Shown here: positions 29,772 through 64,000 of the stretch, in pieces
How the letters are laid out: every line of letters begins with the position of its first letter
How positions within the stretch are numbered: position 1 is the first letter of the stretch
From: Convolutriloba macropyga
Taxonomy: Eukaryota
NCBI RefSeq assembly: GCF_964194025.1
Contig: NC_134470.1
Span: 25,916,001-25,980,000 of the forward strand
Reading direction: 5' to 3'
DNA: 64,000 nucleotides
Position numbers and translations under genes: made by a program
The notes under the pieces: model-generated
Databases searched by the model: none
The model's input: the letters and a program-made list of their open reading frames with translations, nothing else
What the model was told of the DNA's origin: nothing

Positions 29772-31610
29772 TTACAAGGTCCAATCGTCATTTTCGTAAT
29801 CTTGTTCTTCTGCATCGAGAGCAGTCATAGATCTAGCCAATGTCGGGGTGTCCGTTTCTAGCAAAGGTACATTTCGTACCGCGGGAGGCGAGACAGAACC
29901 AATCTGTGGTGACACGTTTTGCTCTTCCGGTTGTATTTCCAAGATTTGTTGCACCGATTCGACAACGGTGACAGGTGGTGCAAAATTTTCGACATCACCC
30001 GCTCGTCGGGGTCGTTTAGGCGGTGGTAGGATGTCTGATCCTGGAGATGACGTTTCAAAACCGTAATATGACGGGCTTCGCCTATTACGGTCAGAGGATC
30101 GTGTTGAAGATGATGTTGCGGGTGGATCAGTGGGCGCATTTGTAGGCGGTTCGCTGATCTCGAGTGGAGGTTGAGCGTTTCGGATTGCAGCGAAGTTTGG
30201 CAATTTTGGGACGCGCCCCCGCATTGCGCGAGAAATGTTTGAGCGCTGTGAAGAGACTCCGCTGCCTGGCTCTCTCTTCCTATGTTTCATCTTTTTGTCA
30301 CCCTTTTGCTTTCGAGTGAACTCTTTAATATGGCTGTGGATCAGCTCTTCAACGACCTTCTCCCCAGCACGTGGCCCGCGTCTGTCGGCATATACTCTTA
30401 ATGGAGTCTGTCTCTCCTGATGGGTGCCGAATTTGGAATATCGCTATTGCGGACGGTAACAATTTGTTTGCCCGGCTCCCTGATGGTCGATGTAGTCGGG
30501 CTTACTTTTAAGATGTGTGATCCTGGGGCGAGAACTTCATAGAGGCCTTCAAGTTTCTTCTTGGATCGTCTTTTGCCGTTGATTTTTCGAGCCAAGTTTA
30601 GCTCTACGGATCGTTCTTTTAGGGGAATGGGGCGGATTGCTTTTGTTTTTAGAAATCTGGATTCGCCATCCGTGCTCGCCCTCTTTCTTGCGCTCGCTTC
30701 CGTTGTGGCGCGTGTCATGCCCTTTTCAACTTCTATGTCGCTTCTGTATCCACTTATCCATTTGTCATCGGGCAGTATTTCCTCCGGCATCACTGTTTCT
30801 TCGTCTAAATAGTGATTTATGATACCCTTATACGACAAATTCATCAAATTCGGTTAAGTTGCAATCACGCTTAGCGGGGTATTAGGTTTTCCCCCAAAAT
30901 GTGCTTCGAAGGGCGAGATCTTTGTTGTTCTTTGTTTACATATTCGCAATTGGTGAATGATTATCTTTAATGCATGCTTTACATGAAAGGCGTGTGCAGC
31001 TAATTTCTCTTCTTTGATACATGCGAGTCTATTCTTAATTGTTTGAATTAATCGTTCCACTAACCCAATAGCACGGTGATCATTTACAGGCGCTTCAATA
31101 ATATCAATGTGGTTTTTATTGCAAAAAGTCTTTACTTGATGTCCAATTAAACATTTAGCTTGGTCTAAACGGATAGATCTTGGAATTCCGTGAGTTTCGA
31201 TGTACATGTCCAAAAATTTTAGAATATTTGGTCCATTAGCTTTTTCATACATATATGCAGTTGGATATTTAGAAAAACGATTGATTGCTGCCAAAAAATA
31301 TACTTCATTGTTCTTTTCATCAAAAATTGGTCCCCCAAAATCGATTTGAATTTCCTGATTAGGTTCAACACATGGTATATGAGGAGTAACTTGTTTAGCG
31401 GGAATTACGGATTTTAGATTCTTACCAATTACTGTGCACGGTTTGCACTCAGTGGCCTTGACTATTAGCTCCCGATGCATGTAAGGCCACCAGCAATGTG
31501 TTGCCATACAGATCATGCCCCATGTACCTGGATGACTGGCATGAATATCATCTGTGAGTGCTTCGCGAAGTACGTTGGGGATAGCTACCTTCTCGTCTAT
31601 GCATACGCAA
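29772..31610 (-). pseudogene. Gypsy pol remnant: integrase (HHCC zinc finger + DDE core) and low-complexity C-terminal extension, split into three ORFs
   Basis: IHASHPG...ECKPC zinc finger; QIDFGGP, IPRSIRLD and AIGLVERLIQTIK core; SPFEAHFG. Continues in 30398..30847 and 29772..30290 after frame breaks. Confidence 0.9.
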
Positions 31611-31613
31611 GAG

Positions 31614-31880
31614 ACAAGAGACAGTTTTGCAAACTGAATTGAATTGCATAAATTGAGAGGAATGAATTAAACAGATTGGAGCCACTTCGGCACAACGTGA
31701 ATACGTGATCAGACATGTCTGATCACGAAGCGGGAAACTATCAGATAACGGAATGAAATGATAAGGTAAACAAATTGAACAAATTAATGAAGGTGAAAGT
31801 AATTGAACTAATTTAAGGCATCAAATAAATTTTACTGCAATGATTAAATAAAATGAATAAATATACCATCAGGTATCACA
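31614..31880 (-). repeat. 5' LTR, truncated (267 bp retained)
   Basis: Direct repeat of 29321-29587, fused directly to integrase-coding sequence. Confidence 0.9.
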
Positions 31881-44530: not shown

Positions 44531-46244
44531 CATATTGTTACGAAAAAGAATTCCATCATTGCTAAAAATTATTTGAAAATGGTTAATTTTTAATCGCTTC
44601 GACACTTTTCTCTCTCAATTTTTTTTGCTGTTATTTCCTGTTTTTGTTCTTTATGTAATTTTAAAGAGCTAAGAGGTTTCAAAAGCCTCTAACTGAGTGT
44701 TTATCGAATGAATTTACTCAATGGAGTAAATTTATAGCAAATAATTTTAAAGTTTATGATATGATTTGTTTTCGAACGTTTTTAAACTTTTTAGTTTTTC
44801 ATCTGTCCAATTGTATCTAATTCTCATCATTGGGAGGCCGCATACACTGGCCTTTAGTTCGAATATTAAAATGGTTTTTGATATTACGTCGTAACTAATG
44901 TTTTGATTGCTGAACAATATGCGTTTTCAAAAAGTTTTGTTAGTATTTGTGTTCCTTCTTCTCTTCTTTAAGTACATCGCGTAATAACAGGTGCCATTGA
45001 TTTGCAGATGAGGCGCAAGCGAACATACTTAATCTTTCTGTATAGTTTTAACTGAAATAATTTAATTAACATTTGACATAAAAACAATATTCAGATAACA
45101 GGGAAAGATTTAAGTGGCCTCAATAATTTGTGTTTCCGCAAATTGCTTGTAATTTTTTCAGTTTTCCTTCATCTGTTGTCCGTTTCTGTGGCTTAGTCTA
45201 ACCAAAGACAAATTCTATTGGTTTTGTAATAACTTTTTAGTAAATTTATCAAGAGTTTTTTTTGTTTAGAGCTAATGGTTTTTAAAACGTTTGTAATTAT
45301 TTGATTTAAAAAAGTTTGGTTGATTTTTGAATTTCTCATCATTATTGCTTCTTTTTGTTAACTTGTTTCCTAGTCTCTATAACATTAAGTCCCCTCTGCT
45401 TTTTGGTAACGAAATTGGTGTAGTTAAGATTTTTTCTGATTGTGTTTTTACGTTGTTACCACGTGCTTTAAAGTTTAAATGTTGAATTTTTACCGTAAAA
45501 TTTTTTTCTTTGCTTACTTTCTTTTCTATTTTACCCCGTAGTCTTATTAACGGTGTGAGATCTCGTGAGCGCTGTAATGAGGCATGGCATTATTAAATTC
45601 TTTTAGTAGATTGTGTAACAATTTTTTTAAACTTAAAGATCTATTTTTTTATTATCTTTTCATTTGGTTGACAGTTATGTCAAAAATGTAGATGAGCGCG
45701 GGTTGGAACATCATGTGCAAACTCATATTAACGAGCCTCCTTGTTTCAGTAATAGAATAAGTTCAAATGAGGTCTTGAACAGCTCTAGAGGGCAGACTGT
45801 TTAATCGGGATGTCGCCAAATACCTGCGATCAAAAATTAATAAAGTATGATAACTTTCAGATTTTTTGTTCTTCGGCAAATAGATCTGGTGCTATTTATT
45901 GAATTAGCGTGTTTGGTTTTAACAAAGCTGTTTTACTTTGAGTTTTGATTGGAGTGTGCATTCACGCAAAATTATCTTTTAATCACATAACTATGTCTCT
46001 TTGTTTCTTTGATTATCAGAAAGGATTACCAACTTATCAATGTTTATCTTTTCACAATCGAACACAAATTGTGATTTGCAGCTGACGAAAATTTGTTTCT
46101 TTGATTTAAAAACTTTGCATTAACTTATAAGCAACGTCTATCGTTTTTATTCTACGCAAAATCAGCAAAGTACAAAATCTAATTCAGTTGAATTTGAGTT
46201 TCTAGTTATTTTCTCATATACGTTGCTAATCTTTTTGTAACACC

Positions 46245-46666
46245 ATGAAACCCTTATATTGCTCAGATCAGGATTCTGTTTTTCATTCTCCTCTAGGAGA
46301 ATACAACTACGCATCAGAGAAATGGGAAAGCATGAAGCACTTTTTGTCTGATATATTCTTGGGAGAGTATCGTGAGAGTAGAGTGATTGAGTCCCTGTCA
46401 GAGAGAAGTCTCTCTTACGAGGAATTATACAGGAGAGGAGAAGAGGTCTCATCTCAACTGAGGAGACAGTTTGGAGTGTGTGAAGGATCCATTGTTCACA
46501 TTGTGAGTGAGAATGGATTTGATTGGCTCACAATCCTCCTCGCCTCCTACTTGAACAACTCTATCCTCTCAGCCACTCATCCTAAGTCACCATGGCCAGA
46601 GTGCGAGAGGAACATTGAGACCACGTGTTCGACAGTCCTCATTGTGTCTGAAAAATGTTACAAAAG
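46245..46666 (+). CDS. First coding exon of an ANL-family acyl-CoA synthetase (4-coumarate-CoA ligase/luciferase-like)
   Basis: ATG at 46245. SLSYEELYRR...FGVCEGSIVHIVSENGFDW...HPK...STVLIVSE matches the N-terminal part of AMP-binding enzymes. Donor AG|gtatat at 46666/46667. No further exons seen in the window. Confidence 0.75.
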
Positions 46667-47404
46667 GTATATTTTTTGACGCTCCCCACACCGCATGTCA
46701 ATTCTGTGAAACGAAAAACGTATACTTGTGGTGATGGCGTCGTATTTTATGTAAGATTAACGCAGTCGGCGTTAAAAACAAAATGTCGTTGCTTTTTTAA
46801 CGTCAATCTTACCTATATTAGCGTCGATAATACCTTGATCTTAGATGAATAAGTGTCAAAACATTGCATTTGATCTTCAAAACGATGTTGGATCTTTTTT
46901 GCTAGCGCCCCCACCCCAGCCCTATATAGTCGTTATTACAGCAACCCCAAAATCTAAGTTTTCCTGAATTGTAAGAACGTATTTGCATTTAACTGAAACA
47001 AGAGTGACTAGGTAGATTGAAGGCACTTTTAGAATAGTTTCCTTATAAAAATTTTAAAATCGAGCCCTTATTGTAGCCACCCGGTGCTACGATTCTCATT
47101 TTTCTTGCCAAGTTCCTATTTGGGACTTGCCAAGATCAGAAGAAATCCTATCAGGAATCCTATTGGGAAACTTACCAAGAATTGTAGGTGGTGGTAAGTA
47201 TATGCAAGTTCTCACTTTTCCCACTAGGAATTTTGAGAAACCTCGGAATCCTAGCAAGAAAAATGGGCACAATAAGAATCTTGCTAGGAAATTTTGAGAC
47301 TCTTTAGGATTCTCGTCAGGAAAAGTGGGAGATAATGGGTTTCCCAGTGAGAAAAATGAGAAAACAGTGGGATTGTTTGTAGGGAAAATCAGTACTAGAG
47401 TTAG

Positions 47405-47731
47405 CCAGGACCCGCAAAAAGTTGTTTCAGAGAAGCCGGGACAGTAAAGCACAAAAGCACACGATAAGGGTGAGGGACCCATAGAAGCCGGGACCCTAAA
47501 AAAACAAAAGCTGTCCCAGAAAAGCCACAACAGAAGAGCAGAAGCACACAAGGGATGGGGAGGGACCCAGAGAAGCCGGGATCCTAAAAGAACCAAAAGC
47601 TGTCCCAGAGAAGCCGGGACAGTAAAGCACAAAAAAACACAATAATGGGGAGGGACCCAGAGAAGCCGGAACCCTAACAAAACAAAAGCTGTCCCAGAGA
47701 AGCCAGGACAGAAAAGCAGAAGCACACAAGG
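47405..47731. repeat. GC-richer minisatellite, core CCCAGAGAAGCCGGGAC, alternating ~38/~51-bp spacing (~89-bp period)
   Basis: Seven core copies at about 47428, 47477, 47515, 47566, 47604, 47656 and 47693. Confidence 0.85.
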
Positions 47732-50700
47732 GTCTTTTCGATCCGAAGAATTGATAAATCTCATTCGCGACAGTTGTCCAACACGAAATTTGAATTGAAC
47801 TGTCATCCTGACCAACCAGTGAGTCACTCAAGGCCCATACCCTTTTCAATAGCATTTCTTCTAAACATACGTCAAAATATGACCAGTCATATGCGACAGA
47901 TAACAGGAAAAACGAGAACTGAAGAAAATTTTGGGTTCAGTTTACCCCTTAAGTTGATTTTTCGAGAAAAAATTATCATAAAAACCTTTTTCTAGTGTAA
48001 AACCAAGCTACAATAGTCACCCCATCTTTTGTTATTTGAAAAAGGATGTAAGCAATACTCTCCTTTGACCTCAAACAATTTTGAAATGGTCTTTTTGATC
48101 CGAAGAATTGATAAAACTCATTCGCGACAGTTGTCCAACACGAAATTTGAATTGAACTGTCATCCTAACCAATCAGTCAGGCTTTCAAAGACAAAACTTT
48201 TTGTAAATAGCGTGTTTTGTAACCAGACGTTAATATACGATCAGTCATATGCGAAAGATAACACTTAAAAACGGAAACTGAAGAAAATTTTGGGTTCATT
48301 TTACCCCTTAAGTTGGTTTTTGGTGAGAAAAAATTATCAGAAAAAACCCTCCGCTAGTGTGTAACCACGCTACGTTAGTCCTCCTATCTTTTGGTTTATG
48401 AATCAGGATGTAAGCAATGATCTCCTCTGACCTCAAACAGTTTTGAGATGGTCTTTTCGATCCGAAGAATTGATAAATCTCATTCGCGACAGTTGTCCAA
48501 CTCGAAATTTGAATTGAATTGTCATCCTAACCAACCAGTCAGGCTTTCAAGGACAATACGTTTTGTAAATAGCGTGTTTTGTAACCAGACGTTAATATAC
48601 GATCAGTCATATGCGAAAGATAACACTTAAAAACGAAAACTGAAGAAACTTTTGGGTTCATTTTACCCATTAAGTTGAGTTTTGGAGAGAAAAAGAATTA
48701 TGAGAAAAAACCTTCCGCTAGTGTGAAACCACGCTACGTTAGTCCTCCTATCTTTTGGTTTTTGAATTAGGATGTACGCAATAATCTCCTCTGACCTCGC
48801 ACAATTTTGAAATGGTCTTTTCGATTCGAAGAATTGATAAATCTCATTCGCGATAGTTGTCCAACACGAAATTTGAAATGAACTGTCATCCTAACCAACC
48901 AGTGAGGCTCTCAAGGAAAATACTTTTTGTAAATAGCATGTTATCTAAACATACGTGAAAATATGACCAGTTATACGCGATAGATAACAGGAAAAACGAG
49001 AACTGAAGAAAATTTTGGGTTCATTTTACCACTTAAGTTGATTTTTCGAGAGAAAAAATTATCATAAAAACCTTTTTCTAGTGTAAAACCAAGCTACAAT
49101 AGTCACCCCATCTTTTGTTATTTGAAACAGGATGTAAGCAATACTCTCCTTTGACCTCAAACAATTTTGAAATAGTCTTTTTGATCCGAAGAATTGATAA
49201 AACTCATTCGCGACAGTTGTCCAACACGAAATTTGAATTGAACTGTCATCCTAACCAATCAGTCAGGCTTTCAAAGACAAAACTTTTTGTAAATAGCGTG
49301 TTTTGTAACCAGACGTTAATATACGATCAGTCATATGCGAAAGATAACACTTAAAAACGGAAACTGAAGAAAATTTTGGGTTCATTTTACCCCTTAAGTT
49401 GGTTTTTGGTGAGAAAAAATTATCAGAAAAAACCCTCCGCTAGTGTGTAACCACGCTACGTTAGTCCTCCTATCTTTTAGTTTTTGAATCAGGATGTAAG
49501 CAATGATCTCCTCTGACCTCAAACAGTTTTGAGATGGTCTTTTCGATCCGAAGAATTGATAAATCTCATTCGCGACAGTTGTCCAACTCGAAATTTGAAT
49601 TGAATTGTCATCCTAACCAACCAGTCAGGCTTTCATGGACAATACTTTTTGTAAATAGCGTGTTTTGTAACCAGACGTTAATATACGATCAGTCATATGC
49701 GAAAGATAACACTTAAAAACGGAAACTGAAGAAAATTTTGGGTTCATTTTACCCCTTAAGTTGGTTTTTGGTGAGAAAAAATTATCAGAAAAAACCCTCC
49801 GCTAGTGTGTAACCACGCTACGTTAGTCCTCCTATCTTTTAGTTTTTGAATCAGGATGTAAGCAATGATCTCCTCTGACCTCAAACAGTTTTGAGATGGT
49901 CTTTTCGATCCGAAGAATTGATAAATCTCATTCGCGACAGTTGTCCAACTCGAAATTTGAATTGAATTGTCATCCTAACCAACCAGTCAGGCTTTCATGG
50001 ACAATACTTTTTGTAAATAGCGTGTTTTGTAACCAGACGTTAATATACGATCAGTCATATGCGAAAGATAACACTTAAAAACGAAAACTGAAGAAACTTT
50101 TGGGTTCATTTTACCCATTAAGTTGAGTTTTGGAGAGAAAAAAAATTATGAGAAAAAACCTTCCGCTAGTGTGAAACCACGCTACGTTAGTCCTCCTATC
50201 TTTTGGTTTCTGAATTAGGATGTACGCAATAATCTCCTCTGACCTCGCACAATTTTGAAATGGTCTTTTCGATTCGAAGAATTGATAAATCTCATTCGCG
50301 ATAGTTGTCCAACACGAAATTTGAAATGAACTGTCATCCTAACCAACCAGTGAGGCTCTCAAGGAAAATACTTTTTGTAAATAGCATGTTATCTAAACAT
50401 ACGTGAAAATATGACCAGTCATACGCGATAGATAACAGGAAAAACGAGAACTGAAGAAAATTTTGGGTTCATTTTACCACTTAAGTTGATTTTTCGAGAG
50501 AAAAAATTATCATAAAAACCTTTTTCTAGTGTAAAACCAAGCTACAATAGTCACCCCATCTTTTGTTATTTGAAACAGGATGTAAGCAATACTCTCCTTT
50601 GACCTCAAACAATTTTGAAATGGTCTTTTCGATCCGAAGAATTGATAAATCTCATTCGCGACAGTTGTCCAACACGAAATTTGAATTGAACTGTCATCCT

Positions 50701-53700
50701 AACCAACCAGTCAGGCTTTCAAAGACAATACTTTTTGTAAATAGCGTGTTTTGTAACCAGGCGTTGATATACGATCAGTCATATGCGAAAGATAACACTT
50801 AAAAACGGAAACTGAAGAAAATTTTGGGTTCATTTTACCCCTTAAGTTGATTTTTGGTGAGAAAAAATTATCAGAAAAAACCCTCCGCTAGTGTGTAACC
50901 ACGCTACGTTAGTCCTCCTATCTTTTGGTTTTTGAATCAGGATGTAAGCAATGATCTCCTCTGACCTCAAACAGTTTTGAAATGGTCTTTTCGATCCGAA
51001 GAATTGATAAATCTCATTCGCGACAGTTGTCCAACTCGAAATTTGAATTGAACTGTCATCCTAACCAGCCAGTCAGGCTTTCAAGAACAATACTTTTTGT
51101 AAATAGCGTGTTTTGTAACCAGACGTTAATATACGATCAGTCATATGCGAAAGATAACACTTAAAAACGAAAACTGAAGAAACTTTTGGGTTCATTTTAC
51201 CCATTAAGTTGAGTTTTGGAGAGAAAAAAAAATTATGAGAAAAAACCTTCCGCTAGTGTGAAACCACGCTACGTTAGTCCTCCTATCTTTTGGTTTTTGA
51301 ATCAGGATGTACGCAATAATCTCCTCTGACCTCACACAATTTTGAAATGGTCTTTTCCATTCGAAGAATTGATAAATCTCATTCGCGATAGTTGTCCAAC
51401 ACGAAATTTGAAATGAACTGTCATCCTAACCAACCAGTGAGGCTCTCAAGGAAAATACTTTTTGTAAATAGCATGTTATCTAAACATACGTGAAAATATG
51501 ACCAGTCATACGCGATAGATAACAGGAAAAACGAGAACTGAAGAAAATTTTGGGTTCATTTTACCCCTTAAGTTGATTTTTCGAGAGAAAAAATTATCAT
51601 AAAAAACCTTTCGCTAGTGTGAAACCAAGCTAAAATAGTCCTCCCATCTTTTGTTATTTGAAACAGGATGTAAGCAATACTCTCCTTTGACCTCAAACAA
51701 TTTTGAAATGGTCTTTTCGAGTCGAAGAATTGATAAATCTCATTCGCGACAGTTGTCCAACATGAAATTTGAATTGAACTGTCATCCTAACCAACCACTG
51801 AGGCTCTCAAGGACAATACTTTTTGTAAAAAGCATGTTATCTAAACATACGTCAAAATATGACCAGTCATATGCGATAGATAACAGGAAAAACGAGAACT
51901 GAAGAAAATTTTGGGTTCATTTTACCCCTTAAGTTGATTTTTCGAGAGAAAAAATTATCATAAAAAACCTTTCACTAGTGTGAAACCACGCTAGAATAGT
52001 CCTCCTATCTTTTGGTATTTGAATCAGGATGTAAGTAATGATCTCCTCTGACCTCAAACAATTTTGAAATGGTCTTTTCGAGTCGAAGAATTGATAAATC
52101 TCATTCGCGACAGTTGTCCAACATGAAATTTGAATTGAACTGTCATCCTAACCAACCACTGAGGCTCTCAAGGACAATACTTTTTGTAAAAAGCATGTTA
52201 TCTAAACATACGTCAAAATATGACCAGTCATATGCGATAGATAACAGGAAAAACGAGAACTGAAGAAAATTTTGGGTTCATTTTACCCCTTAAGTTGATT
52301 TTCGAGAGAAAAAATTATCATAAAAAACCTTTCGCTAGTGTGAAACCACGCTAGAATAGTCCTCCTATCTTTTGGTATTTGAATCAGGATGTAAGCAATG
52401 ATCTCCTCTGACCTCAAACAATTTTGAAATGGTCTTTTCGATCCGAAGAATTGATAAATCTCATTCGCGACAGTTGTCCAACACGAAATTTGAATTGAAC
52501 TGTCATCCTAACCAACCAGTCAGGCTTTCAAAGACAATACTTTTTGCAAATAGCGTGTTTTGTAACCAGACGTTAATATACGATCAGTCATATGCGAAAG
52601 ATAACACTTAAAAACGAAAACTGAAGAAAATTTTGGGTTCATTTTACCCCTTAAGTTGAGTTTTGGTGAGAAAAAATTATCAGAAAAAACCTTCCGCTAG
52701 TGTGAAACCACGCTACGTTAGTCCTCCTATCTTATGGTTTCTGAATCAGGATTAAAGCAATAATCTCCTCTGACCTCAAACAATTTTGAAATGGTCTTTT
52801 CGATTCGAAGAATTGATAAATCTCATTCGCGACAGTTGTCCAACACGAAATTTGAATTGAACTGTCATCCTAACCAACCAGTCAGGCTTTCAAAGACAAT
52901 AATTTTTGCAAATAGCGTGTTTTGTAACCAGACGTTAATATACGATCAGTCATATGCGAAAGATAACACTTAAAAACGAAAACTGAAGAAAATTTTGGGT
53001 TCATTTTACCGCTTAAGTTGAGTTTTGGTGAGAAAAAAATATCAGAAAAAACATTCCGCTAGTGTGAAACCACGCTACGTTGGTCCTCCTATCTTATGGT
53101 TTCTGAATCAGGATTAAAGCAATAATCTCCTCTGACCTCAAACAATTTTGAAATGGTCTTTTCGATTCGAAGAATTGATAAATCTCATTCGCGATAGTTG
53201 TCCAACACGAAATTTGAATTGAACTGTCATCCTAACCAACCAGTGAGGCTCTCAAGGACAATACTTTTTGTAAATAGCAAGTTATCTAAACATACGTGAA
53301 AATATGACCAGTCATATGCGATAGATAACAGGAAAAACGAGAACTGAAGAAAATTTTGGGTTCATTTTACCCCTTAAGTTGAGTTTTGGTGAGAAAAAAT
53401 TATCAGAAAAAACCTTTCGCTAGTGTAAAACCAAGCTACAATAGTCCTCCCATCTTTTGTTATTTGAAACAGGATGTAAGCAATACTCTCCTTTGACCTC
53501 AAACAATTTTGAAATGGTCTTTTCGAGTCGAAGAATTGATAAATCTCATTCGCGAAAGTTGTCCAACATAAAATTTGAATTGAACTGTCATCCTAACCAA
53601 CCAGTGAGGCTCTCAAGGACAAAAATTTTTGTAAAAAGCATGTTATCTAAACATACGTCAAAATATGACCAGTCATATGCGGTAGATAACAGGAAAAACG

Positions 53701-56440
53701 AGAACTGAAGAAAATTTTGGGTTCATTTTACCCCTTAAGTTGATTTTTCGAGAAAAAATTATCATAAGAAACCTTTCGCTAGTGTGAAACCACTTTAGAA
53801 TAGTCCTCCTATCTTTTGGTATTTGAATCAGGATGTAAGCAATGATCTCCTCTGACCTCAAACAATTTTCAAATGGTCTTTTCGATCCGAAGAATTGATA
53901 AATCTCATTCGCGACAGTTGTCCAACACGAAATTTGAATTGAACTGTCATCCTAACCAACCAGTCAGGCTTTCAAAGACAATATTTTTTGTAAATAGCGT
54001 GTTTTGTAACCAGACGTTCATATACGATCAGTCAAATGCGAAAGATAACACTTAAAAACGAAAACTGAAAAAAATTTTGGGTTCATTTTACCCCTTAAGT
54101 TGATTTTTGGTGAGAAAAAATTATCAGAAAAAACCCTCCGCTAGTATGAAACCACGCTACGTTAGTCCTCCTATCTTTTGGTTTTTGAATCAGGATTAAA
54201 GCAATAATCTCCTCTGACCTCAAACAATTTTGAAATGGTCTTTTCGATTCGAAGAATTGATAAATCTCATTCGCGATAGTTGTCCAACACGAAATTTGAA
54301 TTGAACTGTCATCCTAACCAACCAGTGAGGCTCTCAAGGACAATACTTTTTGTAAATAGCATGTTATCTAAACATACGTGGAAATATGACCAGTCATATG
54401 CGATAGATAACAGGAAAAACGAGAACTGAAGAAAATTTTGGGTTCATTTTACCCCTTAAGTTGAGTTTTGGTGAGAAAAAATTATCAGAAAAAACCTTTC
54501 GCTAGTGTAAAACCAAGCTACAATAGTCCTCCCATCTTTTGTTATTTGAAACAGGATGTAAGCAATACTCTCCTTTGACTTCAAACAATTTTGAAATGGT
54601 CTTTTCGAGTCGAAGAATTGATAAATCTCATTCGCGACAGTTGTCCAACATAAAATTTGAATTGAACTGTCATCCTAACCAACCAGTGAGGCTCTCAAGG
54701 ACATTACTTTTTGTAAAAAGCATGTTATCTAAACATACGTCAAAATATGACCAGTCATATGCGATAGATAACAGGAAAAACGAGAACTGAAGAAAATTTT
54801 GGGTTCATTTTACCCCTTAAGTTGATTTTTCGAGAGAAAAAATTATTATAAAAAACCTTTCGCTAGTGTGAAACCACGCTAGAATAGTCCTCCTATCTTT
54901 TGGTATATGAATCAGGATGTAAGCAATAATCTCCTCTGACCTCAAACAATTTTGAAATGGTCTTTTCGATCCGAAGAATTGATAAATCTCATTCGCGACA
55001 GTTGTCCAACACGAAATTTGAATTGAACTGTCATCCTAACCAACCAGTCAGGCTCTCAAGGACAATACTTTTTGTAAATAGCATGTTATCTAAACATACG
55101 TCAAAATATGACCAGTCCTATGCGATAGATAACAGGAAAAACGAGAACTGAAGAAAATTTTGGGTTCATTTTACCCCTTAAGTTGAGTTTTGGTGAGAAA
55201 AAATTATCAGAAAAAACCTTTCGCTAGTGTAAAACCAAGCTACAATAGTCCTCCCATCTTTTGTTATTTGAAACAGGATGTAAGCAATACTCTCCTTTGA
55301 CTTCAAACAATTTTGAAATGGTCTTTTCGAGTCGAAGAATTGATAAATCTCATTCGCGACAGTTGTCCAACATAAAATTTGAATTGAACTGTCATCCTAA
55401 CCAACCAGTGAGGCTCTCAAGGACAATACTTTTTGTAAAAAGCATGTTATCTAAACATACGTCAAAATATGACCAGTCATATGCGATAGATAACAGGAAA
55501 AACGAGAACTGAAGAAAATTTTGGGTTCATTTTACCCCTTAAGTTGATTTTTCGAGAGAAAAAAGTATTATAAAAAACCTTTCGCTAGTGTGAAACCACG
55601 TTAGAATAGTCCTCCTATCTTTTGGTATATGAATCAGGATGTAAGCAATAATCTCCTCTGACCTCAAACAATTTTGAAATGGTCTTTTCGATCCGAAGAA
55701 TTGATAAATCTCATTCGCGACAGTTGTCCAACACGAAATTTGAATTGAACTGTCATCCTAACCAACCAGTCAGGCTCTCAAGGACAATACTTTTTGTAAA
55801 TAGCATGTTATCTAAACATACGTCAAAATATGACCAGTCCTATGCGATAGATAACAGGAAAAACGAGAACTGAAGAAAATTTTGGGTTCATTTTACCCCT
55901 TAAGTTGATTTTTCGAGAGAAAAAATTATTATAAAAAACCTTTCGCTAGTGTGAAACCACGCTAGAATAGTCCTCCTATCTTTTGGTATATGAATCAGGA
56001 TGTAAGCAATAATCTCCTCTGACCTCAAACAATTATGAAATGGTCTTTTCGATCCGAAGAATTGATAAATCTCATTCGCGACAGTTGTCCAACACGAAAT
56101 TTGAATTGAACTGTCATCCTAACCAATCAGTCAGGCTTTCAAAGACAAAACTTTTTGTAAATAGCGTGTTTTGTAACCAGACGTTAATATACGATCAGTC
56201 ATATGCGAAAGATATCACTTGAAAACGAAAACAGAAGAAAATTTTGGGTTCATTTTACCCCTTATGTTAAGTTTTGGAGAGAAAAAATTATCCAAAAAAC
56301 CTTTTCTCTAGTGTGAAACCACGCTACGTTAGTCTTCCTATCTTTTGGTGTTTGAATCAGGATGTAAGCAATAGCCTCTTATGACCTCAAACAATTTTGA
56401 AATTGTCTTTTCAATTCGAAATGATAAATCTCATTCGCAA
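47732..56440. repeat. Satellite array, ~361-bp monomer, ~24 copies, two main subtypes with irregular higher-order structure
   Basis: GTCTTTTCGA(T/G)(C/T)CGAAGAATTGATAAATCTCATTCGCGA recurs every ~360-363 bp from 47732 to ~56405. Repeated short ORFs at 49534/49896, 52429/52791 etc. show the period. Confidence 0.98.
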
Positions 56441-56555: not shown

Positions 56556-57736
56556 TTAATCGCGCTCAAAAGTTACGCAAAGTGTAGACAAAATTAAGCG
56601 TCCGTCTATTTCTCGAACAATGCAAGGCGATAAAAGTTTTTTCACATCAACTAAGGTGACATCACTATTCGCACACTGAATTAAATGATGATTTTCGTAG
56701 CAGCTACTGACCAATTCAAGCCCCTCGTCCAAATTCACTGCTACTCTGGAATGCTCGGTTGGTGACGAGTGATTTTCGAGTTTCTGTATAAGAAAACCTG
56801 TGAATGTTTTCGATGAGTCAAAATCAACAAGATGCACAGCTGCACTTTTTTCCGAAACATCAACAAATATGTCAGTCAACTGACCAAAACCTGTCGCGCC
56901 TTCTTTTTCATACTCAACAAAATGCACGCAGGTTTTGTTAACGTTCCAAGTACATTTACTGCCGTGACAAGCATACATCTTAGAATCTAGCTCAAACGTC
57001 TTGCTTGACATTAAAGTCTCCCGGCTTCCATTTACTTCAATTATACGCTCCGTAGGCTGAAGCAGCTTGAGTGAACCCACTGTTATCGTCTTCGAGTTTC
57101 CCTTTAACTTTTTCCTGAAAAATCGTCTTTGATGCCGTTTGACTGCTAGCTTTGTAGCAACAATGGCACTTGTGTTTGGACCAATAGCGCGTTTCAGATG
57201 AAAATGAGCGGACTCAAATGGAATTGACGACAATGAAGCCAAGGGTCCCGTCTTTTTTGCCTGGTCAGCTAGATGACCGAGAGAATGCATATTGTAACTT
57301 TGAGCCGCTTCTCCATAAAAATTAGGAACCAATTTCCGAAAAATTTTGATAAGAACCTCTGCCTTGTCATAACTCTGCTCTCTGACCGGTTCAATTAAAT
57401 AACGTATTGCAGTACTCAGTAGATAGAAGTGCACAAACATGGGCACTGAGAGAACACCAAAAAAAGACACAAAGCCGTATAAGAGAAACAACTTCAGTTC
57501 TGTTGCCTTCCAATATTTGAGTGTTACTAGAGATCGCAATTGTCTTTTGTTGTCAGTTCCTGGCACCTTACACTTTGAAAGGTTGGCTGACACTTGCGTT
57601 TTATTCCGGCCCAAAAATTTTCTCGATCCGTTGATTCTGCAGAGAAGGGTTTTGACAACACCAAGGAGCACTTGATGCATGTAGTCTATCAGCATTTCAT
57701 CGGGGAGAGTAACAACACTTTCAATTGCTGAGGGCC
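56556..57736 (-). CDS. SET-transposase fusion, exon 2: C-terminal half of CACTA/EnSpm-like DDE transposase
   Basis: IDYMHQVLLG, WKATELKLFLLY and YNMHSLGHL...GPL...SSIPFES motifs. Acceptor tttttgtttag|GG joins exon 1 in frame (LYGLRG-PSAIE). Stop at 56556. Confidence 0.9.
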
Positions 57737-57870
57737 CTAAACAAAAAGATATCCAAAACAATTGGAAAATTTTTTGAGTTTTTAAGGGACTCTAGGAAAA
57801 AAACAGTGACTAAACGTTCTTAAACTCGAGCTATGCAGTAATGGGAGAAAGAAAAGATCAGAAATATTAC

Positions 57871-59734
57871 CTCTTAAACCATATAATGATCTGCACTCTG
57901 ATCCCAGGCATTCCAAAATTAACTGCCGCTCTTTTGATGTCCTTTGAGACACATCAGGCTCATGGAACGGATAAATCCAGGTATCTTTAGCCAGAGCTCT
58001 ACGTCCAACAGCTAGGCAATTCGTGCACCCATAACGCCCATTAAACTGAGTTTGGTTCACTAGAGGTGCTTTCATTACCATATCAACAATTACGTATTTT
58101 AGCTTCACAGTGAACGTATAGGAACTCCCATTTATCTGGAGAACCTTTGGCGAACTGAAACCTGACAGGATTTTGACTGTATGTTTCATCAGATTTTCAC
58201 AATGCGGTTTTTTTTCTCCACCAAATAATGAAACTAAGAGTAAATTCCGGTAGCTAACACGTCGCCTTGCGGGTAAGTTGAGAAGCATGAGCCAGACTGG
58301 GTACAGAGAAAATTTAGCTGAGTTAAAAGGAGAAACCCCGTCAGTGCTTAGAGCAAAATATAAACAGAATTTATTCGACTTCGGTAAACACAAGTCAGTC
58401 TGGAGTTGATAACCTTCAGTGCTAACAAGATCAAAATTTTCACTGAGCAAGTGACTGAGTTGTCGCTCAAAATTAAGGTCATACAGGAGGCCTTCTGGTA
58501 GTTGAGTTTCACTAAGGCCAGATAGTGAACTGATTTCTTGTTGTCTTAGTGAATATAAGCTCGGCAAATTGTTAGCTGCAGGTAACGCTTTTCTAAACAA
58601 GGAAAGAACTGCGCCCAAACCACGCTCGGGGAGATTATGAATGTCAGCTAATTCTATTAACTCAGAGCAAAATGATCGGGTAGTCAAACTCGAACCCAAA
58701 CAGATCATCTCTTCAATTTCAGAGCTACTTGTCATGTTCGACCTTTCACGCCTTTCATCATCAGAGTGATCACCTTGAGACCCTATCGGCTCTAAAAGCT
58801 CTTCGTCGTTGTCCGATATAAAGTCAATTCTATTAGGCGTTGAGCATTCCTTTTCTCTTACATTGTCAAAAAAAAGATTAGCTTCGGATGAAATGCCTAG
58901 ACTTTCATTTTCTGATATATCGGGCGACGCAGTAATAGAGCTCGAAGACTCGGAAGATGTTTCGTATCTGACTCTGTACCGAGACTTCTTAATTCTTCGC
59001 GGCTGATAAGTTGGCCCAACATCTCGATGTCGCCTACGAAGTTTTTGAAGAGCTCGTTGCTCTGTGGTACTTGTCACGAGCCGTTCGCTAACAGTGCTTA
59101 GGCTTCTAACTTTTCCAGAGCGCGTCCAACTTTGAATTGGATGTTCTTTACCGTGCATTTCAGAGAAGGGACATTCGCAATGCACTCTATTTGGGCCAAA
59201 ATAATCACCACTGTATAGCACAGTTATTTCATCACCAGGAAAAAGACCGTTTCTTGAAATCACTCGAATGCTCACTTTCGTTCGCTTTGAATTCCCAACA
59301 TAAGTACAGTTTTCCCTGCAACTAGAATTGATGAAGGAAACGCCTCCTAGCATAATTTTCGATCCCGTATGATGACGAAAAACCGACACATCGTTAACAC
59401 CCTCAACAATTTCGCATTCTTTAATCGGAGCCAAGAAACCAACAAGACCAGGTATAACATCTCCTTTCACAAATCTTTTCTTAGCAAAGACGCCAAAGCT
59501 TGTGAAACCGTTGTCCATTTTAAAATTTGAAGAAAGAGCTCGATACTCAACGTTTAACAAAGACAGAACATATTCCTTCTCAATTTCGTTTTTCAGATGA
59601 CTGAATCCGGACTGGTTTTTAAGAGATAAGTCGCAGACAATTTTATGGGAAACTTTGCCGTCCGAATCAATGTACTTCGAAGTGAGTTCAGCATCTGCTA
59701 ACGCTAAGTCATGCCAAAATATATGACGATTCAT
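57871..59734 (-). CDS. SET-transposase fusion, exon 1: Suv4-20/Set9-like SET domain, low-complexity linker and N-terminal half of CACTA/EnSpm-like transposase
   Basis: ATG at 59734. SET at ~59150-59500: GVFAKK, LVGFLA, NDVSV, LGGVSFINSSCRENC, GDEITVLYSGDYFG...CEC. Transposase: STDGVSPF..S.YPVW...NLP...R...N...KP and IVDMVMKA...NGRYGCTNC. Donor G|gtaata at 57871/57870. Confidence 0.9.
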
Positions 59735-59774
59735 GTTTTGTACTAAAGTATGAAACAAAGGAGTCAATTGGGTG

Positions 59775-60055
59775 TGGAAAAACTTAGAAAACAGTATATT
59801 CAAACAATTTCAAACACCGACCAGGCTATCTAAATTTGGTGTCGATCCCCTAACGAGCGTGATTTGAACCAGTTTAAAGTTGTATCAACCGAAAAGAAAG
59901 ACAAAGGATGAATTGCTTTGGCTAAAGTTTTATTTCATTTCAATTGCCTTATCCCACATTGTGAAACAGTTGGAATGGGTTATAATGAGAACGGAAAAAG
60001 CGTGCAGCGAAAAATTAGCAGGCCACAGAGGTTGAATTTAAAAATAAAACATTTT
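59775..60055 (-). promoter_or_regulatory. ~290-bp paralogous upstream module, copy 1 (others at ~61150-61425 and ~62332-62605); putative promoter/5' leader
   Basis: Shared blocks GGCTATC(T/C)AA, AAAGTT..TCAA, TATCCCA and AATGAGAACGGAAAAA in all three copies, each just upstream of a minus-strand ATG. Function is inferred. Confidence 0.5.
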
Positions 60056-60181
60056 AAGCATCACTGAATCAAATTATAGCTTGTCAGAAAATTGATTAGT
60101 TCAACACATTATTAAGACAACAGCAATAAGTTCTAAGAAAAGAGGATAATCAAACTCAGTGATCATGACTCAGTGTTCCAG

Positions 60182-60715
60182 TTAACAATTTTTGCAGCAA
60201 AAAATTTCGGATTCTACAAAGCAATCATTGCAACTAAATTCTCCGCACTTCGGACATTCTACAAAGTCAGCATTTGTGGATTTGACATTTATGCGGCAGA
60301 CCGCACATCGTAGTGGCAAGAAAGAGCCAAAGCTTGAAGTCAAATTCCGTTTCTTGAAGCTTTGCCACCATTCAGTTCCTGCTTCCTGCCGTTCATGCCA
60401 AGTTGCAGGGAAGTTCACATCATAGTACTTCCCCTTTTGATAAACATATCCCAGTATTTGCTTTAGTTGTCTTTTTCTTTGTGAGCACCAACCTTTGATA
60501 TCAGTAGCCATGGCTGCCTCTTGGATTTTGTTGAACACGTTCCTCTGAGCAGGACTATTGGTCTTCAGCTTCCTTTTCAGGGTACTCAGTGGCACACCCG
60601 TAGACCGTGCAACACATCTTGCTCCATAATTCCCCTCTTGCACCAAAAACAACGCCATCTTCAAATCATACTCTGTGTAGCTATGAGCGGTTTTTCGTTC
60701 GTAGGATCTAGGCAT
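60182..60715 (-). CDS. HTH-psq + CENP-B-type HTH + C-terminal 8-Cys PHD-like finger protein (pogo/Tigger-like, no DDE domain), 177 aa
   Basis: MPRSYERKT..YTEYDLKMAL..V..G......VARSTGVPLSTLKRKL; AGTEWWQSFKKRN; C-x2-C-x13-C-x2-C-x4-C-x2-C-x8-C-x2-C at the C-terminus. Confidence 0.8.
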   Translation of the reverse strand: MPRSYERKTAHSYTEYDLKMALFLVQEGNYGARCVARSTGVPLSTLKRKLKTNSPAQRNVFNKIQEAAMATDIKGWCSQRKRQLKQILGYVYQKGKYYDVNFPATWHERQEAGTEWWQSFKKRNLTSSFGSFLPLRCAVCRINVKSTNADFVECPKCGEFSCNDCFVESEIFCCKNC

Positions 60716-60945: not shown

Positions 60946-61112
60946 AACATATTCCTTCTCAATTTCTTTTTTCACATGACTGAATGCCGACTGGTTTTTA
61001 TGAGACAAGTCACAGAAAATTTTATGGAAACTTTGCCGTCCGAATAAATATACTTTGAAGTGAGCTCAGCATCTGCTAACGCTAAGTCATGCCAAAAAAT
61101 ATGACCATTCAT
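60946..61112 (-). pseudogene. Frameshifted, truncated duplicate of the 5' end of the SET-transposase gene
   Basis: Matches 59567-59734. Reads MNGHIFWHDLALADAELTSKYIYSDGKVS, then a 1-bp deletion (GTTTCCATA vs GTTTCCCATA) and an early stop. Confidence 0.85.
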
Positions 61113-61637
61113 GTTTCGCACTGAAGTATGAAACGAAAGGAGTCAACTAGGTGTGGGAAAATTTAGCATATTAAAACAATTAAACACAGCCCGGGCTATC
61201 TAAATTTGATCTCAATCACCTAACTGGCCCAATTTCAACGAGGTTAAAGTTTGATCAACCAAAAAGAAAGAAAGCAGAAACTGGTTTGGTTAAGCTTTTA
61301 CATCATTTCAAATGTTTTATCCCAACTTGCGGAGCAGTTGACATGAGTGATAATGAGAACGGAAAAAGATTGCGAAAAAACTGGAAGCCAACAGAAGGTG
61401 AATTTATGAATACCGAAAACTTTTTACCATCAATAAGAGTCATTTTAAAAGGCTAAAAAACTTGTATCAAAACAATATTAACACAACAGCATCAGTAAAA
61501 GTAAAATAAAATCAAGAACTTCTGGTTCAAAAAGTATTATCGCTGTATAGAATACTGTATGAGAGACGCTGTATAAACCAGGAAACGATCCATCGTAATT
61601 GCTCGAATTGTTTTCAAATCGAAGGCTTTCAAAACTC

Positions 61638-62153
61638 CTAGTTTAAGTCCAATTGTTCACCATTATTTCCGGAGTTGTTAACCGTAGCTGACAGTTTCTT
61701 CAAGTCTCTACCTTTTTGATTGATTGCCCTTCTGGCTTCCTCCCATTTATTGCCGAACCTGCTCTCAATATAGCTTTTGATAATGTCGACTTTTTCGCTG
61801 TCCAGCGGAGTACGGGTTGAAGTCTTCTGTGGGCTTATTATTCCCTCTCGCAGTTCGTCTTCCGTAAACAATTCACTTGCCAAACGGACTCCATATGCCC
61901 CAGGAGTTGCACCAGTTTTCAACTTCAAACCACTGTCACTCTTGCCAATTGACTGATCGTCTTTCGCTGGGGTTGAGATGTCGGCTCCTTCGTTTGACGT
62001 TATCGCTACTTTATGATACGAGGCTCTCTCGTTGCACCTACTTAGGGCTTCCTGCAAACGCCTGCTCTCTATTCTAGTCTTCTTAACTGAATTTTTGAGC
62101 TCTTCTGACGCGGATTCTAAATCGCTTAGAACTTTCTCAAGCTTGGTGTTCAT
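61638..62153 (-). CDS. Coiled-coil + BEN-domain protein (BEN-1), ~171 aa, possibly with an upstream exon
   Basis: N-terminal heptads, then YGVRLASELFTEDELREG...TPLDSEKVDIIKSYIESRF...WEEARRAINQKGRD, a typical BEN pattern (LF..EEL, LD...I, W.....IN.K.R). An acceptor-like ttatttctag lies 10 nt upstream of the ATG. Confidence 0.8.
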   Translation of the reverse strand: MNTKLEKVLSDLESASEELKNSVKKTRIESRRLQEALSRCNERASYHKVAITSNEGADISTPAKDDQSIGKSDSGLKLKTGATPGAYGVRLASELFTEDELREGIISPQKTSTRTPLDSEKVDIIKSYIESRFGNKWEEARRAINQKGRDLKKLSATVNNSGNNGEQLDLN

Positions 62154-62959
62154 TTCCAACTTCTAGAAATAAGGCAAAAATGAAAATTTCTTCAAAACTT
62201 AGTAAAATTGTGTTGTCCCTAAGGATTCATGCAATTATTAAAACCCAAACTTATGTGCTAATAATTTGCTTATGTGCATAATAATAACTTATGTGCTTAA
62301 TATTTGAAAACACTTCAAACTTTTTAGGATCTGGAAAAAACTTAGAAAACAGCTTTTTCAAACAATTTTGAACCAAGCCGGCTATCCAATTTAACAGCAG
62401 TTACCTATCTATCACGCTTTGAACGAGGATAAAGTTGATTCAAACAAAAAAGACTAAAAGAGGTTAATTTGGTTAAAAGTTTGTTTCATTTGAAGTGATC
62501 TATCCCAATTCTCGAAACAGTCGACATGGGTGAAAATGAGAACGGAAAAATCTTGCTGCAAAAGTATAGAAGCCCAGAGAAGGTAAATTAATGAATACCA
62601 AAAAAAATCAATGAGAATCACTTCACAAGGCTGTAAAACATCAAATGCATAAATACGCCTCTCAATCAACAGTAATTACATTGAAAGCACCACTATGAAA
62701 GGTAATCGTAGCAGCTAAGAGAATCACTTTTTTACTGTATTGTAGGCATAATATCAGTTTACATAAACTTATTGCGAAAACAAAACAAGAAGCATTGGAT
62801 GACTCTGACAGTCAGAACAAATCGACTTTGTCACAATTAAATGATTGGAATGAGATCTGGATTAATTTAACAGGCAGTTGTATCAACATGAAAGCATAGT
62901 TTGCAACAGCATGAAAACGATCACACGATGTATCTTACTTTCTCGCAGCCATAAAAGTA

Positions 62960-64000
62960 TCACCCTTCAGTGACCACCCCAAAGCCATCATTTTCCTTCG
63001 ACGCATCCAGATCCTCCTTTTCAAAATTCTCAGCACTAGCATCCATCAACCGTTTCTTGACTTTTTTCGAGTCCCGTGCACAATCATTTATCGACTTTCG
63101 CGCAAGATACCATTGTCCAGGGAAACGCTCCTCGACCATCTTCTGAATTTTTTCCATGCGCTCAGGATCTAAAGCTGGTTTTGTTGCCTTCTCTGGTTGC
63201 GCAATTCCTCTAATTCGCTCATCTAAGGTGAATAATCTTTTAAAAAGATTAATACCAAATTTACCGGGCGTGCTCCCGGGCAGCTTATTGAGCACTTCGC
63301 CTCCTTCAATAAATTGCTCGCACGCACTGGCTTTCGGTGTTGGCTGCGCCGAAACTTCAGGAGCGTTAGAGTCTAGAAGCTTTCGAATATTTCGAGAATC
63401 TCGTCTTTGGATGTTCAATGCTTCGGTGACGAGCTTGAGCGTTTCACAAACGCTTTCTAGAGTCTCTACAAGGCGTTTATTTTGAACTTGATTAACAGCA
63501 ACTTCCACATTCTCGCTTACTTCTGGTTCATCGTTTACATCGTTGATCATTGCTGTTTCAGCCTCTTGATTTGGTTGATGTGTTTCCTCGTTATCAGACA
63601 AGTTAATAGACTCATTATCGCTCTCTACCCGGATTGACTTCGATCCTGACTGCACCGGTTCTGTCGCTTTTCGTTTTCCGGAAAAGAACGACACGATGTC
63701 GCCATCTTTCTTTTGCGGGGGTTGACTTTTGCAATTTTGAGACTTGGAACTGTCTGGCAGTTCTTCATGAAGATCAGAGAACGTTAAATCAACCATTTCT
63801 GTAGAGGACACATTGTCAATCCTGTTTTCTACTTGCGTGAGTACTTGCCTCTCAGAATCCTCAGAATCCGTCACACCAATGAACTTAGCGTGAAAAGTAC
63901 CCTCGTCATAGCGCAACGGTAGTTTTTTGTTCGAGCCCGGCGCATTCGCGAACTTCAATCGTTCCGAGTAGTTTAAGTCCTTCGGCCAAAACTTGCTATT
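62960..64000 (-). CDS. BEN-domain protein (BEN-2), 5' end beyond the window
   Basis: Frame is open to the window edge (NSKFWPKDLNYSERLKF...). Acidic linker and coiled coil, then FGINLFKRLFTLDERIRG...ALDPERMEKIQKMVEERF...WYLARKSINDCARD. Paralogous to BEN-1 (GSTPGKFG vs GATPGAYG). Confidence 0.82.
   Translation of the reverse strand, partial: NSKFWPKDLNYSERLKFANAPGSNKKLPLRYDEGTFHAKFIGVTDSEDSERQVLTQVENRIDNVSSTEMVDLTFSDLHEELPDSSKSQNCKSQPPQKKDGDIVSFFSGKRKATEPVQSGSKSIRVESDNESINLSDNEETHQPNQEAETAMINDVNDEPEVSENVEVAVNQVQNKRLVETLESVCETLKLVTEALNIQRRDSRNIRKLLDSNAPEVSAQPTPKASACEQFIEGGEVLNKLPGSTPGKFGINLFKRLFTLDERIRGIAQPEKATKPALDPERMEKIQKMVEERFPGQWYLARKSINDCARDSKKVKKRLMDASAENFEKEDLDASKENDGFGVVTEG

Follow-up and report, generated by a model that had tools for sequence, protein, structure and literature searches.

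Does a SET domain found beside a transposase in Convolutriloba macropyga, with altered residues in both its active site and its zinc site, represent a decaying gene copy, a catalytically impaired nucleosome-binding decoy or an enzyme whose product specificity has changed? In the present study, this question was followed in a window of 64,000 nucleotides (the whole stretch of DNA analysed), in relatives of the encoded protein and in the literature. The features of the window are collected in Table 1.

Table 1. Features of the SET-bearing element and its surroundings, with residues numbered from the ATG
Feature	Position	Strand	Basis or remark
SET-bearing frame	59734-57785	minus	ATG at 59734
Shortened Suv4-20-type N-flank with start codon, residues 1-75	59510..59734	minus	translation; AlphaFold helices 7-21 and 41-61
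SET core, residues 76-180	59195..59509	minus	Pfam SET, KMT5B alignment, column counts
SET core key residues			Ser117, Met128, Asn136-Ser137-Ser138-Cys139, Tyr145, Tyr174, Tyr178, Phe179
Post-SET C-x-C-x5-H	59153..59179	minus	putative C3H zinc site with Cys139
Conserved (R/W)TRS motif after the post-SET His	59117..59128	minus	motif counts
Linker, basic then Ser/acidic, low conservation	58700..59116	minus	11-41% identity to 13 relatives
Transposase, remainder of exon 1 (tnp2/DUF1258-like)	57871..58699	minus	Pfam, colinear relatives
Predicted intron, 134 nt, GT-AG	57737..57870	minus	removal restores frame; coordinates and phase
Transposase exon 2 (DYMH, PFES glutamate, C-terminal FERD) and stop	56556..57736	minus	P0194 match
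Tandem array, 24 copies of 361 bp, 91% matches	47731..56438		Tandem Repeats Finder; adjoins transposase stop
HTH gene with Cys-rich C-terminus, upstream	60182..60715	minus	weak Pfam HTH_7
Partial duplicate (79%) of 59567-60125, the upstream DNA and first ~57 codons of the SET gene	60946..61491	minus	blastn
BEN-domain frame, upstream	61638..62162	minus	Pfam BEN above cut-off
Second BEN-domain frame, runs off the window	62960..64000	minus	Pfam BEN E 0.004, under cut-off

The SET module and its kinship with Suv4-20

The SET domain occupies the first 200 residues of its frame and scored 27.7 bits against Pfam SET, where the curated cut-off is 22.4. When the module was compared with solved structures by phmmer, the strong matches were only Suv4-20h1 and Suv4-20h2 (E 4e-12), the next family following at 0.02. 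An AlphaFold model built from a 50-row alignment had a pLDDT of 89.7 and superposed on Suv4-20h1 with 186 residues paired (model 5-198 on 72-334). The two Suv4-20 enzymes headed the structural ranking (Z 20.6 and 19.0) with the next family at Z 11.0, and Foldseek also matched the model to Suv4-20 (E 4e-13, TM 0.80). Since the Pfam score stands above the cut-off and the confident model matches Suv4-20h1, the SET assignment is not due to chance. The N-flank holds two predicted helices in 75 residues and is about 70 residues shorter than that of Suv4-20h1; the four-helix bundle described for the Suv4-20 N-flank (PMC3874154) is absent from the predicted model.

The five motifs named in the earlier note are all present in this frame and align to human Suv4-20h1 as it had claimed, with the numbering taken from the full-length chain 8t9f_K in the phmmer alignment. 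Ser117 of NDVSV (59386-59384) corresponds to S251. In KIMLGG, Met128 corresponds to W264 and Gly131 to P267; in FINSSC (59335-59318), Asn136-Ser137-Ser138-Cys139 correspond to N272-H273-D274-C275; and in YSGDYFG, Tyr174 and Tyr178 correspond to Y307 and F311. Cys186, Cys188, Ser191 and His194 of CECPFSEMH (59179-59153) fall on C319, C321, C324 and R327. In addition, we found three changes beyond that list, namely Tyr145 (59302-59300) at F281, a substrate hairpin two residues shorter, and the (R/W)TRS motif after the His.

Like Suv4-20h1 and Suv4-20h2, which take H4K20me1 to me2, the module keeps Ser251, Phe270, Asn272, Cys275, Tyr307, Phe312, Cys319 and Cys321, has no aromatic residue at the canonical switch position (Val172 here for Cys305) and shows the same predicted fold, N-flank included (Z 20.6). 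Unlike them, it carries Trp264Met, Phe281Tyr, His273Ser and, in place of Cys324, a His three residues later; its N-flank and hairpin are shorter, the R352/R357 anchor is missing, and it is fused to a transposase. By its sequence the module thus appears to be derived from Suv4-20 and not a member of it, as it departs in the pocket, the NH and zinc motifs, the N-flank and the nucleosome contacts.

The likeness to fungal Set9/KMT5 was judged from the chytrid protein P0257 (Physocladia), the one named fungal H4K20 methyltransferase compared. P0257 also has Tyr at F311 and lacks Trp264 (Phe in its place), but it keeps NHDC, Phe281 and CxCxxC and is not on a transposase. A fungal donor was not shown by the SET tree, an unrooted quick-mode tree of 115 rows and 106 columns without the post-SET region; it names no donor, and the His label needs 3 changes in it, 1 being also possible.

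Conservation of the altered residues among relatives

Two samples of relatives were used. For the window's own kind, 98 members were fetched from eight clusters (281 members in total) and grouped as seven families, and the SET core was covered in 62 of the 98. For the wider view, a search at the level of 50%-identity representatives gave 724 matches, of which the best 150 were used together with five cluster representatives; 120 of these 155 cover the domain, the 35 partial ones were left out and the query was added. The rows of this best 150 of 724 comprise 45 with C-x-C-x5-H (His-type), 35 with C-x-C-x2-C and Trp264 (the Suv4-20-like group), 35 others with C-x-C-x2-C and 6 without the motif. 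The window's own family holds many close copies, one 90% cluster counting 40 proteins, and contigs of sequencing runs match the window nearly letter for letter; for 59150-59500, four sequencing runs show one near-universal difference among those listed, at 59251 (Asn162Asp), outside the motifs. Relatives 1,139-3,250 aa long were not found by the search, which is weak evidence.

The zinc site of Suv4-20 has four Cys ligands. Among the 62 SET-covering copies of the seven families (62 of 98 fetched, of 281), none has NHxC or CxCxxC, and the 11 of them that belong to the window's own family all keep NSSC with CxCPxSEMH. Because the changes are fixed across the 62 copies and across the 45 representatives, this comparison rules out copy-specific decay, the outcome against which the earlier note had set its reading. 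The post-SET His is kept in 61 of the 62 copies. In the wider sample (best 150 of 724), the fourth post-SET ligand is Cys at +5 in 70 of 115 rows and His at +8 in 45 of 115, both in 0 and neither in 0, as counted by a script that favoured the register with a fourth ligand when choosing among overlapping CxC registers. Since Cys139, Cys186 and Cys188 are kept and Cys+5 and His+8 are mutually exclusive, a C3H site is the simplest reading, in which the fourth zinc ligand would have been swapped from Cys (+5) to His (+8). The supposed loss of the last Cys from CECPFSEMH therefore stands in so far as Cys324 is absent, but this ligand looks replaced by the His at +8 and not lost.

The reported FINSSC in place of FINHxC was borne out, as Ser137 occupies H273 and His is absent in 62 of 62 SET-covering copies. 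The H273 position of the 45 His-type rows holds Ser in 25, His in 11, Ala in 7 and Asn and Tyr in 1 each (best 150 of 724). In yeast Set1, H1017A is hyperactive, whereas activity is abolished in H1017L/R and N1016A, and weaker SAM binding is reported for MLL1 H3907A (PMC3585878); PRDM9 has Cys at the equivalent position (PMC6054832). Because small residues (Ser/Ala) are used, as in the active Set1 H1017A, the substitutions of the family are almost only of the tolerated type.

The best-kept columns of the His-type rows are S251 and F270 (45 of 45 each) and N272, C275 and Y307 (44 of 45 each). They hold ranks 1-5 of 107 columns, where the median column stands at 0.40 (best 150 of 724), although such values are inflated by the picking of relatives on SET similarity, and the rows, sharing descent, do not count as independent events. 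Drift of the SAM-binding Asn, the channel Tyr and the lysine-binding residue, as in a pseudoenzyme, was not seen in these rows, where all three lie within ranks 1-5. The Ser of NDxSV, said in the earlier note to be kept, is indeed Ser117 at S251; this residue holds the target lysine in Suv4-20 (PMC3874154), and SUV420H1 S251A is a catalytically dead mutant (PMC10055266). Identity to 13 relatives is 31-73% in the SET core (inflated by the same selection), 22-72% in the transposase core and 11-41% in the linker; the SET core is at least as similar as the transposase core in 13 of 13, and the linker is lower in all. Private substitutions occur in single copies, Ser117Leu in P0188 and Tyr178Cys in P0180, and against the fixed family background these look like decay.

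The me1-to-me2 step of Suv4-20 is enforced by a pocket that has Phe281 at its centre and Trp264 in its lining and that locks the first methyl; the corresponding residues of Suv4-20h2 are F191 and W174, with S161 and Y217 as the Ser and channel Tyr (PMC3874154). The present module has Tyr145 and Met128 at the two pocket positions. Across the His-type rows, Tyr occupies F281 in 39 of 45 (rank 12 of 107 columns) and Met occupies W264 in 40 of 45 (rank 11); of the 35 rows with Trp264, 1 has Tyr281, and of the 80 rows lacking Trp264, 53 have it (best 150 of 724). We regard Phe281 to Tyr, paired with Trp264 to Met, as the key change in the aligned residues. In Suv4-20h1, Phe281 to Tyr caused a dramatic activity loss (PMC3874154), which was measured only with Trp264 present.

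The remaining two motif claims held in part. Tyr at F311, likened to Set9, is found in the chytrid P0257, but the His-type rows vary (Tyr 27, Phe 17, Ala 1 of 45), and the proposal that F311Y marks Set9-like specificity was rejected on the counts of Tyr and Phe. Similarly, KIMLGG for QLWLGP is supported by the frequent Met at W264, but P267 is Pro in 33 and Gly in only 7 of 45 rows, so that MLGG was rejected as family-defining (all best 150 of 724).

The surfaces that meet the substrate are less constant. Nucleosomal H4K20 methylation by SUV420H1 needs R257, K258, R352 and R357 (PMC10697951), and neither R257/K258 nor the acidic-patch anchors R352/R357 have a counterpart in the alignment with the window's module. 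The hairpin is 12 residues long here against 14 in Suv4-20 and 11-15 across the His-type family, and its dibasic pair is present in 10 of 45 His-type rows against 33 of 35 rows compared with them (best 150 of 724). Furthermore, the H4- and DNA-contact positions Y254, R220 and S283 rank 88-93 of 107 columns in the His-type rows of the same best 150 of 724. The phmmer alignment places lysines at the R220 and R286 positions of the window's copy, and H4 recognition by Suv4-20 is reported to be mostly through main-chain contacts (PMC3874154).

Among the 42 C3H rows, 22 have a motif [TL]R[STA] no more than 20 residues away from the His, whereas it was found in 4 of 133 control windows and in 0 of 28 and 0 of 33 rows of the other groups (best 150 of 724). 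As a speculative guess, (R/W)TRS may be a nucleosome anchor replacing the lost arginine anchor. The literature consulted gives no support to TRS as an acidic-patch anchor, and one paper on such anchors reports no sequence motif around them (10.1101/2024.06.26.600687).

The transposon that carries the module

The SET domain is the N-terminus of an apparently intact, intron-split CMC/EnSpm transposase of about 1,014 aa. The window transposase matched Transposase_21 (E 6e-5) and, more weakly, DUF1258 (E 0.05), without reaching the cut-off of either; the fused relative P0015, which is colinear with it, reached 40.3 bits for DUF1258 (cut-off 33.1). The D, D (STDG and IVDM aspartates), CxxC, H and E motifs are present, and we assume that they have the catalytic roles. 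Removal of the intron would give 1,014 codons and a stop, and the unspliced product would be SET plus half a transposase (650 aa). Both exons are colinear with relatives of 1,006-1,075 aa that lack the intron, and exon 2 is 42% identical to the intronless P0194 over 392 aa, through the last residue. The frame break at 57870 was also considered as a frameshift, which was rejected for an intron in view of these colinear relatives, the restored phase and the exon 2 match. At the intron site, after the GLRG codons, the frame is interrupted at this same codon in three other families and uninterrupted in two, which indicates intron gain or loss within the transposase lineage. Contigs of four sequencing runs showed no joint at 57870/57737, which has no bearing on splicing.

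The His form of SET goes with the transposase in the proteins compared. Of the 20 C3H proteins with a length of 420 aa or more, 17 matched a transposase profile, whereas none matched among the other Cys-type (0 of 12) and the Trp264-type proteins (0 of 23) (best 150 of 724); 5 of the 17 matches are circular, as they belong to the profile itself or to a cluster of one of its members. Three His-type SETs of 424-532 aa, P0034, P0055 and P0071, are without a transposase match, two of them with weak C2H2 matches; they are possibly domesticated or on other elements.

As for the element itself, the upstream BEN and HTH frames agree with the CACTA trait of neighbouring DNA-binding genes. A homologue of the HTH/Cys-rich gene lies upstream of the SET-transposase in a related locus, L001 (E 4e-27), where the HTH gene and further frames precede the SET-transposase in the same order as in the window. 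Besides the partial duplicate of the 5' part of the SET gene, blastn within the window showed a weaker third copy of the upstream DNA at 62336-62639, before a BEN frame, and the element genes may share a duplicated promoter block. The 361-bp array is probably a subterminal part of the element; an 89-bp repeat lies beyond it at 47417-47718. A candidate terminus near 47080 has no partner end within the window, the other end being past 64000. An AMP-binding (acyl-CoA ligase-like) host exon on the plus strand (46230-46679, Pfam E 7e-9) adjoins this candidate end, and the element may be inserted in an intron of that gene. Elsewhere in the window, broken LTR-retrotransposon-like frames with an integrase core occur at 29772-31666 (Pfam rve E 5e-9), and short tandem arrays at about 3100-4300 recur at about 6250-7400 with a spacing of 3,133 bases, indicating a local duplication of about 3.1 kb at about 3100-7400.

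A Cys-type sister of the SET cassette was seen at L002:3-2807, where it is joined to a zinc finger and a 553-aa frame comes after it. Other proteins with the Cys-type cassette are P0038, P0050, P0052, P0061, P0069 and P0077, of which P0052 and P0050 extend into the start of the 553-aa frame; several Cys-type cassette proteins start with an N-terminal TRS/LRS-like motif. The 553-aa frame matched no Pfam or PHROG family, its single-sequence fold (pLDDT 42) was too low for use, and one Atlas row at 0.90 had Phage_integrase in 15% of members. The frame carries motifs that we take to be tyrosine-recombinase-like. These observations suggest that a second, unrelated element class carries the Cys-type cassette.

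Possible activity and its meaning for the transposon

With the fusion, the fold, the family-wide fixation and the constraint on catalytic columns established, we infer zinc binding by the His, catalysis, product, substrate and purpose as follows. We would give an even chance to an active lysine methyltransferase with a changed methyl-state rule, acting on nucleosomes where the transposase acts. The element encodes a SET domain derived from Suv4-20 (KMT5B/C) and joined in frame to the N-terminal end of a CMC/EnSpm DDE transposase; within the fusion lineage this domain would have been rebuilt and not broken. The fourth zinc ligand would have passed from Cys (+5) to His (+8) in a putative C3H site, and the His of the NH motif would have been freed to shrink to Ser/Ala, the Asn being retained; the first-methyl pocket would have gone from Trp/Phe to Met/Tyr, and the lysine-binding Ser and channel Tyr would have been retained. 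The module would bind SAM and methylate a nucleosomal lysine near the element ends, the excision site or the new insertion. By analogy with Phe/Tyr-switch logic, an unmethylated lysine as substrate and mono-methylation as outcome would be favoured by the pocket hydroxyl, and the default substrate, from ancestry only, would be H4K20. Of the two outcomes foreseen in the earlier note, changed product specificity is thus the better-supported branch, by way of F281Y with W264M and not the Trp loss alone that it had named. The catalytically impaired decoy is disfavoured, as S251 is kept in 45 of 45 rows (best 150 of 724), the His change is of the type tolerated by Set1 and the Cys looks replaced.

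An unlikely alternative is a reader or tether that binds SAM structurally and grips a (methyl-)lysine, for instance H4K20 in one of its states, with no efficient turnover, steering the transposase to selected nucleosomes or shielding these against host enzymes; it corresponds to the impaired binder or decoy of the earlier note. Such a reader would retain many of the same residues, and it would fit with the killing of human Suv4-20h1 by F281Y (PMC3874154), the non-catalytic nucleosome effects of SUV420H1 (PMC10055266), fusion to a transposase as is often found for reader domains (10.1101/2021.11.30.470311), the conserved basic TRS motif behind the SET domain and the disappearance of H4-contact residues. 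However, the effect of F281Y is known solely beside Trp264, and the catalytic and cofactor columns are kept best where the H4- and DNA-contact positions rank 88-93 of 107 (best 150 of 724), the opposite of what is expected of a reader.

More unlikely again, the module may be an active enzyme with a non-histone substrate, such as its own transposase, the BEN/HTH proteins of the element, or a host silencing or repair factor. The catalytic columns are kept while the hairpin and nucleosome contacts drift, and the basic linker and co-encoded proteins would supply lysines in cis; however, Suv4-20 reads H4 mainly via the main chain, so that side-chain drift need not alter the substrate, and the window's copy has lysines at R220 and R286. 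That the module is a captured piece of a gene which decays or hitch-hikes neutrally is very improbable and by these comparisons largely refuted already, since, for all the private hits in P0188 and P0180 and a number of origins left unfixed by the tree, the frame is open, the motifs are identical across the family, the catalytic columns are fixed among clusters less than 50% identical and the SET core has changed far more slowly than the linker.

SET domains on transposons are already known, including HarbingerS and MuDR in Phytophthora, Plavaka PAG2 in red algae, and Helitrons (PMC12730594, 10.1101/2025.02.11.637652). In these, too, a SET domain is kept on a DNA transposon, and Plavaka belongs to the same EnSpm/CACTA superfamily (PMC12730594, 10.1101/2025.02.11.637652). 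In the available descriptions the SET of these elements is an accessory gene, with PAG2 joining SET to a DNA methylase, and it is by these descriptions that the window's SET, in frame with the transposase and derived from Suv4-20, is set apart. SET-transposon fusion gene models were also counted in a survey of 823 fusions (10.1101/2021.11.30.470311). In our literature search, which lay outside Repbase and most subscription journals, no report was found of a CMC transposase bearing a fused SET domain of Suv4-20 descent with a His-type zinc site. SETMAR is one domesticated host gene, found in primates, and carries a mariner domain. The present protein resembles SETMAR/Metnase in the joining of an N-terminal SET to a transposase (10.1101/2021.11.30.470311), but belongs to a multi-copy element family of another superfamily, and the SETMAR SET reached only Z 7.5 against the model.

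Transposon-borne SET domains have been reported, but their active site is uncharacterised in the literature examined. Here a rebuilt Suv4-20-type module is fixed across dozens of divergent transposase families, and it offers a natural experiment on the re-tuning of SET product specificity, as human F281Y is dead and yet Tyr is kept beside Met. As a small soluble domain, it makes the writing or reading of chromatin marks by a transposon directly testable. Anti-silencing is the usual proposal for transposon SET cargo. The in-frame fusion suggests a role during transposition at least as much as anti-silencing. In human cells, H4K20 without methylation is the mark of replicated chromatin, where it attracts homologous recombination, and H4K20me2 that of unreplicated chromatin, where it attracts 53BP1 and end joining (PMC6548474). 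It is a doubtful idea that the fused module writes or senses the H4K20 methyl state at the transposition site, coupling jumping to replication and repair. If this were true, a transposase with a Tyr/Met pocket tuned to unmethylated H4K20 could excise from replicated DNA, with the gap refilled from the sister, or could decide how the breaks that it makes are repaired. This would amount to an amplifier of copy number built into the element. The Cys-form cassette before the recombinase-like gene in L002 would then make a portable chromatin-state module for mobile elements.
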